From: a virus
Lineage: Duplodnaviria > Heunggongvirae > Uroviricota > Caudoviricetes
Virus record (IMG/VR): IMGVR_UViG_2667527717_000002
Strand: one strand, 5' to 3'
DNA: 15,565 bases
Shown: piece by piece, positions 350 through 8,706 of the stretch
Position numbering within the stretch: position 1 is the stretch's first letter
Layout: the number at the start of each line of letters is the position of its first letter
Made by a program: the position numbers and the translations under genes
The notes under the pieces: model-generated
Seen by the model: only the letters and a program-made list of their open reading frames with translations
Told to the model about the DNA's origin: nothing
Database searches by the model: none

Positions 350-449
350 TGCTACGGAAGTGTCCACACGGTTTAGCAGCACCCGATACTTTTTCCAGGC
401 TTCCAGCAACGAGTTTTCTTCCTCCGTTGCATATACAGCTCACCTTTTT

Positions 450-743
450 TCACCCACGATTAACCAACAGCCAGACCAGCAGACACGCCACCACCGGCAC
501 AGCAAAATCCATCAGGCTTGCCACATCCCATGCACGTGTATCAAAACCGCCCCACCACGGCATATTCATTCGCTTGCCATGCCCGAACATTTCGATCCAG
601 CGATATTCTGCCTGGGTGTGTTCACGCGCAATGAAGAACGTACAACCGGCTATCGCCCCGTAAGCCCAGTTCCCGGTAAAAAGACCAATCAGTAGCTGCG
701 CAGCCACAGCACAAAGCGCATGAAGGAAAGGTGTTATATCCAT
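450..743 (-). CDS. Small predicted integral membrane protein, about 97 aa with three hydrophobic segments; function unknown, possibly a prophage accessory (moron) gene
   Basis: ORF 450..758 in the track begins at a TTG; I prefer the ATG at 743 (MDITPFLHAL...), which has an AGGA 5 nt upstream, with the ATG at 749 as an alternative. Hydrophobic stretches ITPFLHALCAVAAQLLIGLF, WAYGAIAGCTFFIA and AVPVVACLLVWLLV flank a Trp-rich loop (MPWWGGFD). I do not recognise the family. Confidence 0.5.
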   Translation of the reverse strand: MDITPFLHALCAVAAQLLIGLFTGNWAYGAIAGCTFFIAREHTQAEYRWIEMFGHGKRMNMPWWGGFDTRAWDVASLMDFAVPVVACLLVWLLVNRG

Positions 744-756
744 TTTCATCCTACCC

Positions 757-779
757 AATAAAACGGGGCGCTCGGCCCC
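757..779 (-). terminator. Candidate intrinsic terminator after the 346-aa gene
   Basis: Five-bp GC stem (765-769 ggggc pairs with 775-779 gcccc), 5-nt loop, followed on the minus strand by GUUUUAUU; starts 6 nt after the TAA stop at 786-788. Confidence 0.4.
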
Positions 780-785
780 TTAATA

Positions 786-1826
786 TTATTTAGACGCAAG
801 CGCCGCATCAATTGCAGATAATCTTTGTCTTAATTCTGCGTTTTCTTCTTCCAGTGCTGTTATTCTGTCGTCTGACTCTCTGGCTACCTGAACAAGCAAG
901 CCAGTAACACCAGAATAATCAACTGTGTAATAACGTTCACCTTCTTCACCTTCCGATCCGCTTGCACCGTCCTGATATTTCATTGCGGAACCTACAACTT
1001 CTGGGATTGCTTCCAGAGCTTCCTGTGCAATGACTCCAGCATAGGGCATACCGTTTTCTTTAAGCGTGTATGTATAGCCGTTCATTTTACGGATGCGGTC
1101 GGTTGCATTATCGATCACCTGAATGTTGTCTTTCAGATCCCGGTCGGAATGCTGGTTAAATGCGGTGGCATGACATGCACCATTAACGCTTAACATATAG
1201 GTGTTATCGGTATTTTTCTGCGCATAGAACATATAAGCGCCACCATCAGCACCAACTTCATATACAACCGGACGGGTAGAGTTACCCCACAAACTAGTAG
1301 TAGCGCCAGAATGAGCGGTTCCCTGTGTGTTGATTGTCATGGTTGACCCATGATTGGCATATTTGATTTGTAATGTGTCTGTGCAGTCAAACTTAATAAG
1401 CGCGTTACTTCCCCGCACACCATACGACATGAGACAGTTCCCCATCTTAAGGTAACCATCACTGCCTGGAAAAATTAATGTTCCGCCGTAAAGATCGCTA
1501 AAATCCCAAAAGATACCTTTTGTTCCATTGTGTGTGACAATCCTTGTCATTGTATCTTTTGTACCGTCAATATTTTTTCTGGTGTACATCTCACTATAAG
1601 CGTTTTCGGTTTCTCCTGTCTTATTTGACAAGTGAATCTTACCGCTAAATATAGTTCCAGTGGTCGGCAATGTCTTTTGATTATAGATTACATTGCAATA
1701 ACTATTCCATGTTGTTTTATTGTCTACATATGATTTTGTTGCGTAGCTTCCTTGATCGTTTTTTAATTTGCTAACGTCGGATTTTAGCGTTTTGATATCA
1801 TCAGGAATTACTGTCGATGTAGCCAT
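786..1826 (-). CDS. Tail fibre or tailspike-like protein with a C-terminal intramolecular chaperone, self-cleaving domain (peptidase S74-like)
   Basis: 346-aa ORF, ATG at 1824-1826 with GAGGA 7 nt upstream. The C-terminal ~110 aa (HSDRDLKDNIQVIDNATDRIRKMNGYTYTLKENG...YAGVIAQEALEAIPEVV...YTVDYSGVTGLLVQVARESDDRITALEEENAELRQRLSAIDAAL) fit the pattern I know from the self-cleaving chaperone domain of endosialidase and other phage fibres. N-terminal ~35 aa are coiled-coil-like; the middle is Gly/Thr/Asn-rich. Lower GC than the lambda-like genes. Confidence 0.75.
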   Translation of the reverse strand: MATSTVIPDDIKTLKSDVSKLKNDQGSYATKSYVDNKTTWNSYCNVIYNQKTLPTTGTIFSGKIHLSNKTGETENAYSEMYTRKNIDGTKDTMTRIVTHNGTKGIFWDFSDLYGGTLIFPGSDGYLKMGNCLMSYGVRGSNALIKFDCTDTLQIKYANHGSTMTINTQGTAHSGATTSLWGNSTRPVVYEVGADGGAYMFYAQKNTDNTYMLSVNGACHATAFNQHSDRDLKDNIQVIDNATDRIRKMNGYTYTLKENGMPYAGVIAQEALEAIPEVVGSAMKYQDGASGSEGEEGERYYTVDYSGVTGLLVQVARESDDRITALEEENAELRQRLSAIDAALASK

Positions 1827-1835
1827 TTTTCTTCC

Positions 1836-2117
1836 TCACATCCAGCCACGAAGTTGATGCTCAACAGCAACCGCGTATTCATCGAATAATGACGATATTT
1901 GCGAATCATTAATGATGCGCACGTTTACAAAATATCCGTCCTCCTTAACACATACCGGCTCGCCATCTTCAGTAAGTTCTCCGGTTTCTTTGTACACATT
2001 ACCTATCACGTCAATAAGAATATCATCCTGCATCGACTCGTCATCATAATAGCCAATACTCTCCATAAAGGCCGAAAAGTCGGCCCTGTCGGCAAATTTG
2101 AGTGTTAAATCTTTCAT
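1836..2117 (-). CDS. Hypothetical small acidic protein (93 aa), translationally coupled to the fibre gene; candidate fibre assembly or adaptor factor
   Basis: ATG at 2115-2117 shares one base with the stf TAA stop (TAATG); GGGGGAG 8 nt upstream; its stop at 1836-1838 lies 9 nt before the next gene's ATG. Sits where lambda has tfa but is shorter and I see no similarity to Tfa. Confidence 0.6.
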   Translation of the reverse strand: MKDLTLKFADRADFSAFMESIGYYDDESMQDDILIDVIGNVYKETGELTEDGEPVCVKEDGYFVNVRIINDSQISSLFDEYAVAVEHQLRGWM

Positions 2118-4495
2118 TAGATTGACTCCCCCATCTGAGCATCAGTCAATGCCTTGTGCCATATTCTGAAATTCCTGACATGACCAAATAAATGACGCAA
2201 CCCAGCTGTAGTCTGGCCTCCAATACGGATAATTGCGGTGTTCTGAATATAGGACCATGTGGCTTTCTTTTCGCTGGATATACGCCCGTTACTTACTGAG
2301 CACGTAGACTGATCTGACTTTACACGCATCCCCATAACCATTTTTTCAAGCGATGCGTTTTCGTTTACCCGTCTGTTAGCCAAACCTATATCGCAATAAG
2401 GAAATCCGTCGTAATCTGTTGAACGACCGAAGCCAAGAATAATAGCCGCTCCGGTTTGATGACCGCCGGTATCAAAAACACGCGGTGCTGCATTTGGCGT
2501 TTTATACCAGTTCTTATGTACCTCACAAAGAACTGTAAAAGGAAGATTATAAAGGTTATTCTTGATTGAGACTGTCACCATATCGCTTGCGCGAGTGCTT
2601 GCAATTATATCAGTTACAATAAATGACGAAGCACTTGATCCACCTTCCACTTGTGGAGTTGCGATATCCAGATAGTCTCCAGATGCTGTGCCTGAACCTT
2701 TTACTGGAGCATATTGAACCATCGCACCAATCATGCTCTCTGTATCTAGTGCATTAATTGTAGCCTGATAGAAAATCCAACCAGTAGCCTCATCTTTTAC
2801 AGCCTTTGCAATAATACGATTTGCTGCACCACCAGTCTTATCAATTACAAGTGTTGATAAATTGAGGTAAGCATCTCCCAAAAAAGTGTAAGTAGAACCA
2901 TCATGATGTTCAAATCTTAAACGACACCTTATATTTTCAACATCACTTCTGACACGGCATGAAATGGTCACATATTTTTCATCACCTGTGACATCAAATC
3001 CTTTACTGCCAGAAACCGTTACGATATTAATCGCACTTGTCTGATCAATAAGAGTATCTTTTACAGTAAATCTCCCATAAGTAAAATTAAAAGAATCCGT
3101 GGATATTTCTGTGAGTTCCAGATTGCCTGACTTATTCCATTTAGATGGATTTGTTGAATTAAGCAGAAGATTAGTTCTTTGCCCCTCAATAAGCAGGCCA
3201 TCACGTTCAAATCGCGGCTCGTCAATGGCAGCCTCTGTCAGTACACCAGATTTATTAATATAGGTTGCTTTCGATGCGCGTTTAAACTTAACAACCTTGT
3301 CACCAGGCATCGTTATTTCATCATCACCAATAACAATCTTTTTATATGATGGCGAAAAGCCCGTAATCATATCCAGTGAATCGTTAAACGGTATCCACAC
3401 ATCGGGAAGCGGCTGCAAAACTTGTTTATACGGCTCCGCAGCCTGGCTTGCATACTCTCTGGCTGCGTCTTCACTTGCTTTTGCAGCCGTCTGGCTTGCA
3501 GCGGATGCTTTCGCCGAGTTAGCCGCCGCAGTCTCGCTCGCCTTTGCGTTGGTTTCACTGGTTTTTGCAGCTTTTTGACTGTTGGCTGATGCAGTGGCAG
3601 AAGAAGCCGCCGCACTTGCAGAACCAGCTGCGGCACTCTCGCTTTGGGCTGCAGCATCCTGACTGTTTTTCGCCGCAGTTTCACTGGCTTTGGCATTCGT
3701 TTCGCTGGTCTTCGCTGCCGTCTGGCTGGACTTTGCGTTAGTTTCACTCGTCTTCGCAGCTTTCTGGCTGTTAGCCGCAGCAGTTGCTGATCCAGCTGCT
3801 GAAGTCGCAGAACCGGCTGCCGCGCTCTCGCTTTGGGCTGCTGCAACCTGGCTGTTTTTTGCCGCAGTTTCACTGGCTTTGGCATTCGTTTCGCTGGTCT
3901 TCGCTGCCGTCTGGCTGGACTTTGCGTTGGTTTCGCTCGTCTTTGCGGCTGTCTCGCTATTTTTCGCGTTGGTTTCTGATTTTTTGGCTGCTGCCGCGGA
4001 GTTTGCTGATGCAGTCTGTGAGGTCGCTGCCGCCTGTGCACTATTAGCTGCATTCGTTTCTGAGGTTTTCGCCGCGTTCTTCGATGATGCCGCTGCAGTT
4101 TCGGATTTCTTTGCCGCCGCTGCGCTCTGAGAGGCGGCTTCAGCGTTGCGTGCCGCTTCTTCCACCATTTCCTCAAAACGACGCAATGCCTCCGGCATGA
4201 CATCATCTTCCGTCATGGCACCGAGAAAATCATTCAGCGTACCTGGTCTGGAACCTTCATAGACGGTAATGGTCCCGGCATGCGAAGGCGGAAAACCTTC
4301 AACCAGCAGGGTGACGCTGTACTGGCCATACTCAACATCCATGCTGTAACGCCCGGCTTCATCAGGATTTTCAGAGGCCACCGTGTTCACCAGTACCGTG
4401 GTGCTGTTACGCTTTGCCTTCAGTTGAATAGTGCAGTTCTGTATTGGTTTTCCCGCACCATCTTTCAGCACACCTGAGATTTTTACTGCTGCCAT
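2117..4495 (-). CDS. stf: Side tail fibre protein (Stf-like): lambda-like N-terminus, Ala/Ser/Thr-rich repeat shaft, and a divergent C-terminal domain predicted to be lectin-like
   Basis: N-terminus MAAVKISGVLKDGAGKPIQNCTIQLKAKRNSTTV...GRYSMDVEYGQYSVTLLVEGFPPSHAGTITVYEGSRPGTLNDFL matches my recollection of lambda Stf. Start taken as the ATG at 4495 (GGAG 5-6 nt upstream) rather than the GTG at 4501. The C-terminal ~450 aa are unlike lambda Stf and end in ...GLRHLFGHVRNFRIWHKALTDAQM, reminiscent of concanavalin-A-like (LamG-like) lectin domains; that fold assignment is inference. Confidence 0.85.
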   Translation of the reverse strand: MAAVKISGVLKDGAGKPIQNCTIQLKAKRNSTTVLVNTVASENPDEAGRYSMDVEYGQYSVTLLVEGFPPSHAGTITVYEGSRPGTLNDFLGAMTEDDVMPEALRRFEEMVEEAARNAEAASQSAAAAKKSETAAASSKNAAKTSETNAANSAQAAATSQTASANSAAAAKKSETNAKNSETAAKTSETNAKSSQTAAKTSETNAKASETAAKNSQVAAAQSESAAAGSATSAAGSATAAANSQKAAKTSETNAKSSQTAAKTSETNAKASETAAKNSQDAAAQSESAAAGSASAAASSATASANSQKAAKTSETNAKASETAAANSAKASAASQTAAKASEDAAREYASQAAEPYKQVLQPLPDVWIPFNDSLDMITGFSPSYKKIVIGDDEITMPGDKVVKFKRASKATYINKSGVLTEAAIDEPRFERDGLLIEGQRTNLLLNSTNPSKWNKSGNLELTEISTDSFNFTYGRFTVKDTLIDQTSAINIVTVSGSKGFDVTGDEKYVTISCRVRSDVENIRCRLRFEHHDGSTYTFLGDAYLNLSTLVIDKTGGAANRIIAKAVKDEATGWIFYQATINALDTESMIGAMVQYAPVKGSGTASGDYLDIATPQVEGGSSASSFIVTDIIASTRASDMVTVSIKNNLYNLPFTVLCEVHKNWYKTPNAAPRVFDTGGHQTGAAIILGFGRSTDYDGFPYCDIGLANRRVNENASLEKMVMGMRVKSDQSTCSVSNGRISSEKKATWSYIQNTAIIRIGGQTTAGLRHLFGHVRNFRIWHKALTDAQMGESI
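3480..4120 (-). repeat. In-frame tandem repeat inside stf with a 189-bp (63-aa) unit: two near-identical copies plus degenerate flanking copies
   Basis: Read directly: gccgcagtttcactggctttggcattcgtttcgctggtcttcgctgccgtctggctggactttgcgtt occurs at 3672 and 3861; gaacc(a/g)gctgc...ctctcgctttgggctgc occurs at 3621 and 3810. Protein level: AAKTSETNAKSSQTAAKTSETNAKASETAAKNSQ(V/D)AAAQSESAAAGSA... twice. Confidence 0.85.
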
Positions 4496-4504
4496 ATCCA
4501 CTCC

Positions 4505-4533
4505 ACAAAAAAGCCCGCCTGAACCGGCGGGCT
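4505..4533 (-). terminator. Intrinsic terminator downstream of lom
   Basis: Eight-bp GC-rich stem (4512-4519 agcccgcc pairs with 4526-4533 ggcgggct), 6-nt loop, followed on the minus strand by UUUUUU (plus 4507-4512 aaaaaa); about 27 nt after the lom stop. Confidence 0.65.
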
Positions 4534-4559
4534 GTCATAACACTGTGTTACCTGGCTAA

Positions 4560-5159
4560 TCAGAATTTATAACCGACACCCACGATGAAACCGTCAGTGC
4601 GCCAGTCACCACTGCCGGAACCTTCATAAGCAAGGTCAATGGCCACGGATTCGGTCGGGTTAAACTGCACGCCAGCCCCCCACGCCAGAGACGTGTTGCT
4701 GTGGCGACCGTCATCACTTCCGGTCAGCACATCGTGCGTTTTCCCCTTGTTGTCAGTTACGCGGAGATAATCCCCGGAGAAGGTCGACACACGGCTGTAA
4801 GCCATACCCGCCATCGCATAAGCACTGAACCATTCATTCACGCGTACAGATGGCCCCGCCATCATGCTGAACCAGCGGTTACGCACTGAATCTTCATGCC
4901 AGCGGGTATCGCTGTAATGCGTTTTTTGCTCATCTTTGGCATTGGCATAACTGAATGACGTCACCAGCCCCAGCGTGTCCGTAAATTCATAACGGTATTT
5001 CACGTTAATGCCCTTCAGGTCATCACTGCCTGGCATATCAGTATGGGTCTGAAGATACCCGGCGCTTAGTGTGGACTGATGCTCTGCTGCGCTCGCTGGC
5101 GTACCAGCGGCAACCAGCCAGACTACTGCGGACAGAATAACAGCACATAATTTACGCAT
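4560..5159 (-). CDS. lom: Lom, an Ail/Lom-family outer-membrane beta-barrel protein (prophage accessory gene)
   Basis: 199 aa with an N-terminal signal peptide (MRKLCAVILSAVVWLVAAGTPASA) and C-terminal ...AYEGSGSGDWRTDGFIVGVGYKF, matching my recollection of lambda Lom; GAGAGG 4-5 nt upstream. Confidence 0.9.
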   Translation of the reverse strand: MRKLCAVILSAVVWLVAAGTPASAAEHQSTLSAGYLQTHTDMPGSDDLKGINVKYRYEFTDTLGLVTSFSYANAKDEQKTHYSDTRWHEDSVRNRWFSMMAGPSVRVNEWFSAYAMAGMAYSRVSTFSGDYLRVTDNKGKTHDVLTGSDDGRHSNTSLAWGAGVQFNPTESVAIDLAYEGSGSGDWRTDGFIVGVGYKF

Positions 5160-5226: not shown

Positions 5227-8200
5227 TCAGCTGATACTGATGCCTGCGGTGGCTTTCTTCATCACCACAACCAGCAAATCGCTGATACTTGCTGTGGGAT
5301 ACCAGTCATTTACCAGCCATGCTGACACCGAAAACTCCAGCGTCATGTGACCGTGACCGGCAGGCATATCAATAACGCCACTGTAAATCAGCGTATTATC
5401 CAGCGCGGTACGGTTATAAATTTCAGCACCGTTTTTCCGCACTATCAGACGGCATGAGGAGTAAATATCAGTATGCTCTCTCTCATGTTTAGCGCCGCTG
5501 AATGCCACCGCCGGAATAACAATCTGCCGGTCAAACGGCTGATCGTCATAAACCCTGACGGTAATGGTCCCTGATGGCCACCGTTCCGGTGCACGGGAGT
5601 CCCGGGGGAAAGCTTTGCCCACTGTTTTAACGAGATCGCCTTCAATCTGGTTCGCGGACAGTTTTCCCAGAACCCGGCAGTTCTCGTTAATCGTGACGTT
5701 GTTGAGCGTCCCGGAGTTCGCATTCACGTTACCGCTGATATCGGCATTTTTCGCCGTCAGCCGCCCGTCCGGTGTCAGGGAAAATGCCGGAGGATTACCG
5801 CCGCTGGTAATGGTGGGAGCCGTCAGATATTTCAGGAACACTTCGTTCATGAATATCTGATCGCCCTGACCAACAAACATCGGCTTTGTGTTGCCATTCG
5901 CAGGATTAACCATCGCAATCCTGTCCGCCGCCAGCAGCACCTGACTCTGCATGCCGTCAGGGGTGTTCTCAATACCGGCACCAATACCCGCGATATAAAG
6001 GCGTCCGTCCTGCATCTGCTGCAGCTTCACAGCCCACATGCTGTTCAGGTTATTATTTGTATCAACCTGAACCTTCTGTATCTGCTGAATTGCCGCACTC
6101 TGGTCTTCCAGTTTCTTATTGACGGTCTGCGTGATTTCATTGCTGACATCCGTAATGGACGTCCTGATTTCAGCCAGGTCAGGCGCAAGCTGACCGTTAT
6201 CAATCTGCGTCCACAGCTCCTGAGCCAGATGGCTTTTCCCTATCTCGCCTTTGAAAAAATCCAGATAGCCGGATGCATCATCACTCGGCTGGCCAACAGC
6301 CTCCACAAATGCCGATTTGCCAACGGTGTTCACACTGCGGATGTAAAAATAATAATCATGGCCCGGTTTGATATTGATACTGGCGGCTATCCAGTACAGC
6401 GCCGTGCCAAGATAGCGGGCTGTGGTTTCAACCTGCCTGATATCGGTAATCCGCGTTTCCGAGAACCAGAACTCAAACTGTACCGTCGGATCATAAACCG
6501 CAAGATGCGGCGTGGCAGTTATCTGAAAATAGCCCGGCGTCAGCTCAATCCGCGACGGCGCTGCCGGTGCGGCAATCCGGAACGATACCGATGCCGGATC
6601 GCCCTGCTGTCCCCACGCATTTACCGCCCGGACCGTCAGCGTGTAACGCCCCAGCGCCAGTTGCCTGAAGCGGTATGTGGTTTCCGTCGTCCTGGCCGTG
6701 CTGACCAGCCGCTCACTGCCGTCGTCCGCTGCCACGGTCAGGCGAAGCAGGAAGCTCACGCCCTTCACCACCTTCGGCGTGTCCCAGCGGGCCAGTACCT
6801 GATACTCCCCGCTGTCTGCAGTGACTTCGGCAGTCAGGTGCTGCACCGCTGGCGGCGTGACACCATTCACCGTGCCGCTCTGGTCACCGTCAAAGTGCGC
6901 CCCGTTATCCACGATGGCTTCTTTCTCCGGTACATGCTGCACGGCAGTGATGGCATACGTGCCGTCGTCGTTCTCACGGATACTCACACAGCGGAACAGT
7001 CGCTGACGCAGCGTCGGCAGCTTCAGCCCCCATACGCTGTATTCAGCAACACCGTCAGGAACACGGCTCACTTTTACCTTCACGCCGTCGGTGACGGACT
7101 GAACCTCCACGCTGACCGGATTGCCACTTCCGTCAACCAGGCTTATCAGCGTGGTACCGGAGGATGGCAGCGTGATTTCACGGTCGAGCGTCAGCGTCCG
7201 GGTCTGGCTGTTTACCGCCAGCACGCGCCCGCCGGTGCTGATACCGGCATAGTCATCATCGCAGATTTCAATGACATCGCCCGGTACATGGCGAAGCCCT
7301 TCTGCACCCACGCTGAAGTCCACGGTCTGCGTTTCCAGCAGTTCCGTTTTAATCAGCCACAGCCCGGCGCGGTGCGCCTGCCCCCGGCTGGTACAGCCAA
7401 AGGCATCCATCTTCGTGACATTACGACCGTAACGGGCAATGGCCTGCGTATCTTCAACAAGCTCTGTCGCCGTCTCCCAGCCGTTGTTCGGGTCAATCCA
7501 GTTCACCTCAACGGCATTATGGCGGTCCTTCAGGGCGCTGAAGCTGTAGCGGAACGGCGCGCCATCATCCGGCATCACCACATTACTGCGGTTATAGGTC
7601 CACACCTTATCTGATGGTCGGTCCTGCACGAACGTCAGCGTCTGCCCGTTCCATACCGGCATACAGCGCATCGCCGAGCAGAAATCACTGAGCACATCCC
7701 ACGCCTTACGCTGCGTGGTCAGGTAGGCATTACAGGTGATGCGCGGCTCCGTGCCGCCAAAACCGTCCGGCACTGACTGGTCGCAGTACTGGCCGATGAC
7801 ATACAGCGCCCATTTATCCACATCCGCCGCACAAAGACGTTTCCCCATGCCGTAGCGCGGGTGGGTCAGCATATCCCACAGACACCAGGCCGGGTTGTTG
7901 CTGTATGCCGGCTTAAACGTTCCGTCCCAGATACCGCTGTATTGCCGCGTCTGCGGGTTATAGTTCGACGGCACCTGCAGAATGCGCCCGCGAAGATGAT
8001 AATTACGGCTCACCTGCTGGCTGCCGAACTGCTCCGAGTCCACCTGCACGCCGACCAGTGCCGTGTTCGGGTAGCACTGTTTCACATCGATGATTTCGGT
8101 GTATGACGACCAGAGCGTTTTGTTCTGCAGCTGGTCTGTGGTGCTGTCCGGCGTCATCCTGCGCATCCGGATATTAAACGGGCGCGGCGGCAGGCTACCC

Positions 8201-8706
8201 ACCACCACCGAGGCCAGATACTGCGAGGTGGTTTTGCCCTTAATGGTGATGTCTTTTTCCGTCACCCAGCCACCGTTACGTTGTATCTGAACCAGCAGAC
8301 GGACTTCCGACGGATTCCTGTCCCCCTTTGAGGTGGTTTCCACCAGTGCCTGTACACCGAAGGTAAAGCGCAGACGGTCGATGTTTGCAGACGTAATGGT
8401 GCGGGTGATCGGCGTGTCATATTTCACTTCCGTACCCAGCACCGTCTCGGAGCCGGAGGATTCAAACCCCTCCGGCGGTGTCTGCTCCTGCTCACCGGCA
8501 CGGAACACCACCGTGACACCGGAGATGTTGGTATTCCCCTCAGTGTCCAGCACCGGCGTACTGTTCAGCAGCACGCTTTTTAATCCATCCACCGGACCTT
8601 CAACCGGCCCTTCGCTGATGGCATCGATCACACTCAGCAACTGCGTGGACTTCAGGTTGTCCTTCGCTTCGCGCGGGGTATGCCCCTTACTGCTTCCTTT
8701 ACCCAT
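5227..8706 (-). CDS. J: Tail tip, central fibre, host-specificity protein J
   Basis: 1159 aa beginning [34 protein letters not shown]...; most of the length is close to lambda J as I recall it. GTGAGGA upstream of the ATG. Confidence 0.95.

Follow-up and report, generated by a model that had tools for sequence, protein, structure and literature searches.

Gene order at the fibre locus

What does a small acidic protein do when its gene lies directly behind that of a side tail fibre, at the site of a tfa gene that has been displaced? The question arises from a stretch of viral DNA of 15,565 nucleotides (IMG/VR record IMGVR_UViG_2667527717_000002; hereafter, the window), which covers the tail-fibre end of an E. 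coli prophage of the lambdoid type. A prophage of E. coli 7CC that adjoins appY/ompT is 99.9% identical to the window, and the region 400-4600 is matched over at least 80% in 203 of 5,426 complete genomes.

All features considered here lie on the minus strand. J (5227-8706) and lom (4560-5159) are followed by stf (2117..4501), which encodes a proximal side tail fibre of 794 aa and matches phrog_1419 over its full length. The small ORF comes next (1836..2117), and behind it lies the gene for a distal fibre of 346 aa (786..1826, with a full-length match to phrog_4563). The cassette is thus made of three genes, a point absent from the original prediction made for this locus. A gene for a membrane protein of about 97 aa (450..743; phrog_1443) comes last in the cassette of each lambdoid locus, with or without a distal fibre; in the window, the mechanical ORF runs to 758 from a TTG. 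The membrane protein gave no match in Pfam, NCBIfam or PADLOC, and it might act in exclusion or in lysogenic conversion.

Some 1.4 kb further downstream than the small ORF, at about 320-430, lies a truncated tfa pseudogene, which the PGAP annotation of the 99.9%-identical 7CC prophage records; similar tfa fragments exist in phages 2G7b and ev243. The presence of this remnant downstream makes it appear that the lectin-tip cassette has replaced the ancestral C-terminus of stf and most of tfa.

The small ORF is a conserved phage gene

The original prediction described an ORF of 93 aa at positions 1836-2117, with no indication of strand, that was strongly acidic and started on the stf stop codon behind a ribosome-binding site. 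All these features were confirmed, with the ORF on the minus strand. The protein has a mass of 10.7 kDa and a pI of 4.05, with 21 Asp and Glu residues versus 7 Lys and Arg. The TAA stop codon of stf and the ATG of the small ORF share one A (TAATG), and a ribosome-binding site, GGGGGAG (2126..2132), is located inside the last stf codons, 8 nt 5' of the ATG. Acidity varies within the family, as the homologue of phage phiG7 has a pI of 6.7.

The sequence, not recognised in the original prediction, was placed in a catalogued family by homology searches. Residues 1-93 of the small protein align with profile positions 1-92 of 92 in PHROG 1361 (E = 5e-46), a family listed as of unknown function; its SEED label, 'FIG00639828 hypothetical protein', appears in lambdoid phage records too. 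Homologues were detected in 181 phage records by tblastn, in 372 protein clusters by a profile search of 5.8 billion proteins, and in 82 representatives among 1.84 billion proteins by hmmsearch. In 191 loci, the ORF is almost always intact, with a length of 85-110 aa. Medians of pairwise dN/dS range from 0.23 to 0.42 depending on the subfamily, and values of 0.2-0.4 indicate moderate constraint only. The residues most conserved in the family are an N-terminal LKF..D, a G-x-x-V-N-x-R motif and a C-terminal R-x-W. AlphaFold2, run with an alignment of 40 sequences, yielded a compact alpha+beta fold (pLDDT 86.5, pTM 0.73). Because the match to PHROG 1361 is full length, homologues are widespread, the ORF is kept intact under constraint and the fold is confident, the small ORF is a real, conserved protein-coding phage gene, far beyond a chance ORF.

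Membership in PHROG 1361 says nothing about mechanism, as the family has no assigned function. The small protein matched no Pfam family at E ≤ 1 and no NCBIfam family, so it is not a Tfa; defence models (PADLOC) gave no family at E ≤ 0.1. Two outcomes would have spoken against the original prediction, a match to a known family unrelated to fibre assembly and conservation as an untranslated spacer only. Neither was seen: what is conserved is clearly the protein. Giant PKD/TPR repeat proteins found among the hmmsearch matches were considered repeat or composition artefacts and not fusions. Database entries of 102-150 aa were likewise rejected as natural fusions, as they are frameshift or junction artefacts.

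The upstream fibre ends in a lectin-like tip

Stf starts with an N-terminal anchor (Pfam PF08400, aa 5-134), continues with an Ala/Ser/Thr-rich repeat shaft, and carries a C-terminal module of lectin-like appearance. The stf gene contains 2.3 copies of a 189-bp repeat (3524-3958), with nested periods of 21 and 42 bp, which code for the shaft, rich in Ala, Ser, Thr and Lys. The annotation of strain 7CC divides stf into two CDS, a split that might fit repeat-mediated indels.

A GTA head-spike-fibre domain (NCBIfam NF048003, GTA_spike_fiber) spans Stf aa 437-638 (2588..3193), with a score of 57.9 bits, above the curated cut-off of 36. The same domain is matched by PDB entry 6tb9, which corresponds to Rcc01080 (E = 7e-5). 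In an AlphaFold2 model of Stf residues 400-794, residues ~445-625 form a confident beta-sandwich (pLDDT 80-95), and Foldseek searches with this part retrieved legume lectins, CBM6 and CBM30. Foldseek matches of the module to Pa193/E217 were discarded as generic beta-sandwich matches, uninformative on the small protein. The C-terminal 427 aa of Stf are 65% identical to Gp22 of phage IrisVonRoten, whose C-terminus has been published as a galectin-like domain (PMC11990801). The match to NF048003, the identity with Gp22 and the lectin and carbohydrate-binding-module matches of the model together support the lectin-like nature of the tip, a proposal already contained in the original prediction.

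Behind this domain lies a terminal domain (aa 639-794; 2120..2587) with a hypervariable body and a conserved stretch of about 35 aa at its end (nt 2120-2224), finishing in ...RHLFGHVRNFRIWHKALTDAQMGESI. In the AlphaFold2 model of Stf residues 400-794, an isolated monomer, pLDDT values of the terminal domain (aa 626-794, nt 2120-2620) were 23-42, and the first 45 residues of the modelled module fell in the same range. Such low values in the terminal domain admit more than one explanation: they may reflect the need for a partner, a domain formed jointly by N- and C-terminal segments, or a shallow hypervariable alignment alike.

One type of fibre tip accompanies the small gene across distant phages

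In about 200 loci, the small ORF was always found directly after a fibre gene whose product combines a GTA head-spike-fibre domain with a terminal domain ending in ...HLFGHVRNFRIWH. The upstream gene ends in the same C-terminal strand in all 191 loci. Overlap of the fibre stop codon with the start of the small ORF occurs in 189 of 191, by 4 nt in 131 and by 1 nt in 58, so that the predicted location directly behind stf and the coupling to it hold well beyond the TAATG of the window.

Annotated phages from seven groups were inspected, among them lambdoid phages (2G7b, IdasGreatGrand, phage 21, ev243 and PhiR40_1), Drexlerviridae (KarlJaspers, tuinn), T5-like phages (IrisVonRoten, SelmaRatti, AKFV33), Queuovirinae (JenP2, phiG7), Dhillonvirus (Ioannina) and rV5-like phages (EmilHeitz). 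The fibre ends in ...GGQ..G.RHLFGH(V/I)RNFRIWHK.LTD.Q... in all of them, and the small ORF is next. Depending on the locus, the upstream partner is a tail or a head fibre gene. In phage D2, an IS element lies between the fibre gene and the small ORF, and both genes are present. Certain GenBank records labelled 'Campylobacter phage' or 'Listeria phage' (e.g., MG065666 and OR848352) contain rV5-like or T5-like E. coli phage sequence, with identities up to 99%; records of this type are probably mislabelled or contaminated.

The association was also examined from the side of the fibre. A tblastn search with the last 210 aa of Stf yielded 205 phage records; the small ORF had given 181, and both sets cover the same taxonomic range. 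Even the weakest fibre-tip matches (27-32% identity) have full-length family members of 88 aa next to them (E = 3e-16 and 5e-15). In environmental viral contigs, reached via the homologues P0221 and P0224, a family member of 96-108 aa follows standalone proteins of 391-920 aa, which start with ...TFTRAS.ATYV...PRFSYDP, like the head-spike-fibre module, and end in a strand of the same type as that of the phage fibres, NGY.Q.I.YYP.RL.N.E.QALT. Family membership of these environmental proteins was established by hhalign over the full length (probability 98.8%, E = 1e-16). The genes found downstream encode capsid or unrelated proteins, and no distal fibre is present.

A search of 185,579 species genomes gave a single match, an islet of Martelella sp. 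HB161492 (L205, 2360-4357) that codes for a protein of 103 aa, another of 446 aa that is head-spike-fibre-like, and a family member of 118 aa (E = 3.7e-13). The gene for the latter overlaps the stop codon of the 446-aa gene, and no distal fibre follows. The islet lies among chromosomal genes such as xseA, and resembles the head-spike locus of a GTA, apart from the additional small gene. Altogether, the association spans lambdoid, T1-like, T5-like, rV5-like and Queuovirinae phages, distant environmental phages and the Martelella islet. As judged from sequence comparison, the association between the small ORF and the fibre tip is firm, being invariant and reciprocal in very distant phages.

A proposed role in building or completing the tip

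Because the gene always lies directly behind fibres with one sugar-binding tip, its product most likely helps to build or complete that tip. Roles related to the fibre tip, of any kind, can be considered highly probable. Our preferred reading, to which we assign a probability of roughly 0.5, is that the small protein is translated together with Stf and serves its lectin-like tip as an accessory or in assembly, as a functional analogue of Tfa; we infer from the sequence context both its binding to the tip and its role in assembly or capping. Owing to the overlapping stop and start codons, the small protein would be made in step with Stf. It would then bind the conserved framework of the Stf terminal domain (the end in ...HLFGHVRNFRIWH...) and not the hypervariable sugar-binding surface, and the bound protein would help the tip to fold or assemble, or would cap it. 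Such a role would be independent of the distal fibre. In phages that do have a distal fibre with a TxIPxDIxxLK peptide, the unit made of tip and small protein would probably serve as docking site as well.

The observation that AlphaFold2 folds the lectin domain but not the isolated terminal domain weakly favours this proposal. On the other side, lectin-like beta-sandwiches usually fold unaided, which counts against an assembly role. A relevant case is Rcc01080 (GhsB) of the gene transfer agent RcGTA, which is a relative of Stf aa 437-638 and not of the small protein. The RcGTA head-fibre domain is a single-subunit, lectin-like module that binds capsule polysaccharide (PMC7296036, PMC10218006), and Rcc01080 produced by itself in E. 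coli is a soluble protein with capsule-binding activity (PMC10218006). That Rcc01080 folds alone counts against an assembly role too, though it does not have the terminal domain of ~150 aa found in Stf. Its gene is followed by capsule-synthesis genes, and no homologue of the small ORF is found there.

The distal fibre and its putative docking peptide

The distal fibre gene of the window starts 9 nt after the TGA of the small ORF, behind GAGGAAG, and its product contains a Peptidase_S74 intramolecular chaperone (aa 227-278, nt 993-1148). Its first 26 aa (MATSTVIPDDIKTLK...; 1749..1826) constitute a putative docking peptide, found only in cassette-bearing phages. In all 83 loci of the window type, which share a near-identical small ORF, a third gene begins after 9 nt and its product starts with MATSTVIP(D/G/E)DI(K/T)TLK. 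The distal-fibre bodies behind this shared peptide are unrelated, as shown by comparison of loci L025-L088: some are 346 aa long with an S74 domain, others ~234 aa. From the sequences, the swap of bodies is a clean cassette exchange at a conserved joint.

Other subfamilies show N-terminal variants that include MATVT(N/V)IP.DIT.LK, MVTKT(V/I)IP.DIT.LK and MTTYTNIPQDITKLK, and the window-like motif can be written as TxIPxDIxxLK. Residues 1-120 of IrisVonRoten Gp24 have full-length matches in cassette-bearing phages only, whereas LtfA of DT57C and the fibres of Dhillon-, Wifce- and Kuravirus phages match Gp24 only from residue ~27-49. For the 40-aa N-terminus of the distal fibre of the window, all 60 matching records (60/60) were cassette-bearing. 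Since distal-fibre residues ~1-26 are confined to phages with the cassette, this segment looks like a docking peptide specific to the junction.

Drexlerviridae, T5-like phages and Queuovirinae likewise have the small ORF between a proximal and a distal fibre gene, and the gap is always 9-12 nt. At positions 1826-1838 of the window, the small ORF and the distal fibre gene are in the same frame, separated by the TGA and three codons. A read-through fusion of both was discarded because the arrangement is not conserved: the gap is 10 nt in SelmaRatti and phiG7, and in PhiR40_1 an in-frame TAG precedes the gene for the membrane protein.

The above gene order, found in the window, in the 83 loci of its type and in the three other groups, is one of several observations that would suit a different explanation: the small protein might be a structural hinge or adaptor kept in the virion, providing a socket for the docking peptide of the distal fibre, and a leftover or a cap in phages where no distal fibre exists. 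The confinement of the peptide to cassette phages, while homologous distal fibres elsewhere match from residue ~27-49 onwards, is in line with this explanation, and so is the combination of a near-identical small ORF and one same peptide with unrelated distal bodies. In addition, published models attach the distal to the proximal fibre with the mode of attachment unspecified (PMC11990801). We consider a primary function as hinge or adaptor possible but rather unlikely, for reasons that involve phages devoid of a distal fibre.

Lineages without a distal fibre

The distal fibre is absent from all 98 loci of the phage 21 type (51) and the ev243 type (47), and the membrane-protein gene lies directly after the small ORF in 92 of the 92 informative loci among them. 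The small ORF remains intact there, with dN/dS of 0.32 in the phage 21 type and 0.42 in the ev243 type. The value of 0.23 found in the presence of a distal fibre is somewhat lower, which is a point in favour of a hinge. A search for a protein with the docking peptide elsewhere in phages without a distal fibre found none. Dhillonvirus, rV5-like phages, environmental phages and the Martelella islet also keep the small ORF and have no motif-bearing distal fibre. Constraint on the small ORF in all these lineages argues against a protein that acts mainly as hinge. Furthermore, the conserved residues of the family are common to lineages without a distal fibre and therefore cannot exist to hold one; the most deeply conserved of them predate the distal fibre.

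Comparison of neighbouring modules revealed a mosaic structure. Among small ORFs at least 90% identical, tip bodies diverge down to 24% identity and distal bodies down to 13%, and the divergence of the small ORF correlates poorly with that of the tip body (rho = 0.21). The conserved unit runs from the C-terminal ~35 aa of Stf through the small ORF into the N-terminal ~20-26 aa of the distal fibre. As the small ORF does not track the tip body, it would appear to be a partner of the conserved framework and not of the receptor-binding surface.

Divergence of the small ORF does correlate with that of the N-terminal 20 aa of the distal fibre (rho = 0.81-0.86). A linkage control, the N-terminus of the unrelated membrane protein that is equally adjacent, gave rho = 0.74; the C-terminal 35 aa of the fibre gave 0.89. 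The correlation with the docking peptide was thus rejected as a sign of contact, because the control value of 0.74 indicates linkage, and the hinge explanation loses one of its potential arguments.

On these grounds, a role in assembly or capping of the tip is favoured over a role primarily as adaptor or hinge, and the two are not mutually exclusive. A speculative combination, which we regard as slightly less probable still than a hinge, is that the small protein is an obligate third subunit of a plug-and-socket junction: one copy would clamp the conserved framework of each lobe of the tip, and tip and copies together would offer a socket for the ~26-residue plug of exchangeable distal fibres, giving a portable 3:3:3 connector; in the absence of a distal fibre, the protein would be a cap. 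A connector of this kind would explain why the fibre end, the small ORF and the peptide move as a unit between two hypervariable modules. If true, it would also allow siphoviruses and myoviruses to place on the first fibre another one that binds receptors and can be exchanged.

Relationship to known fibre systems

Proteins of the Tfa type (lambda Tfa, Mu U and P2 G; Caudo_TAP, PF02413) come from a gene that directly follows the fibre gene and is expressed along with it; the same holds for the small ORF, which sits where the displaced tfa was. The presumed target is in both cases the C-terminal, receptor-binding end of the fibre. In contrast with Tfa, the small protein has no Caudo_TAP match, is half the size and consists of a single alpha+beta domain. 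It does not co-vary with the tip body, as reflected in the rho value given above, and its putative client is a monomeric lectin-like beta-sandwich instead of a trimeric beta-helical tip.

Another precedent is T4 gp35, encoded in the order 34-35-36-37. It is likewise the product of a small gene located between half-fibre genes, and in both systems a segment dedicated to attachment lies at the N-terminus of the distal fibre. However, gp35 is a protein of 372 aa, unrelated in sequence, and the small protein is kept in many lineages without a distal fibre. The small ORF lies between two fibre genes, as the gp35 gene does, in the window and 89 loci that bear the motif, but not in the phage 21 and ev243 types, in environmental phages or in Martelella.

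The T5-like phage IrisVonRoten has the same three-gene cassette as the window: Gp22 and Gp24 are the fibres, and Gp23 is a homologue of the small protein with 39% identity. LtfA/LtfB of DT57C were considered as a precedent and set aside, because they represent a different fibre type in which LtfA ends in an S74 domain and no small ORF exists. Similarly, rV5 proper has an S74-ended variant of the fibre and is without the small gene. In AKFV33, the fibre protein ORF137 was found at 95.8 kDa on SDS-PAGE in a study that covered only four gel bands (PMC3326045). The predicted mass of ORF137 (L203, orf137/orf136) is 83.1 kDa, and the adjoining small protein has 10.1 kDa, close to the excess; the excess is, however, probably a gel anomaly.

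A different possibility is that the small protein is cargo that rides in the fibre operon and is unrelated to fibre assembly, with a regulatory, exclusion or anti-defence function. Inhibitors of host targets are common among small acidic proteins of phages, the small protein carries no functional annotation anywhere, and the cassette also holds a membrane protein of no assigned role. Against such an explanation, overlap with one and the same fibre domain is maintained in siphovirus-, myovirus- and podovirus-like phages, both virulent and temperate, and in an alphaproteobacterial islet. The absence of a PADLOC match points in the same direction, and the gene is also found in strictly virulent phages (T5-like and rV5-like), inside late structural operons. 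A cargo function seems therefore improbable.

The gp38 gene of phages T2 and S16 comes right behind the fibre gene, as does the small ORF. That the small protein belongs to the receptor-binding site itself, as an adhesin subunit of the gp38 type placed on the tip and touching the host glycan, is the least credible reading, despite speculation on gp38-like adhesins of related rV5-like fibres in an atlas preprint: adhesins are hypervariable and the small protein is a conserved element between two hypervariable modules, at least 90% identical while tip and distal bodies fall to 24% and 13%, respectively.

Implications for lectin-tip fibres

We found no paper that discusses the small protein. The study of IrisVonRoten (PMC11990801) and the tail-fibre atlas preprint model proximal and distal fibres and omit the Gp23-type protein, and the Eligo paper on lambda-Stf chimeras contains no mention of accessory proteins. 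Lectin-tip fibres are common in phages of E. coli and Salmonella, including phage 21, many phages of the BASEL collection and T5-like therapeutic candidates, and the lectin-tip cassette is found in a large share of E. coli prophages. Should the small protein be dispensable, it would be one more conserved phage ORF without an assigned function. If folding or capping of the tip, or attachment of the distal fibre, depends on it, fibre swaps that omit it would fail. For structural work, the joint of two-part lateral fibres becomes directly testable at the molecular level.
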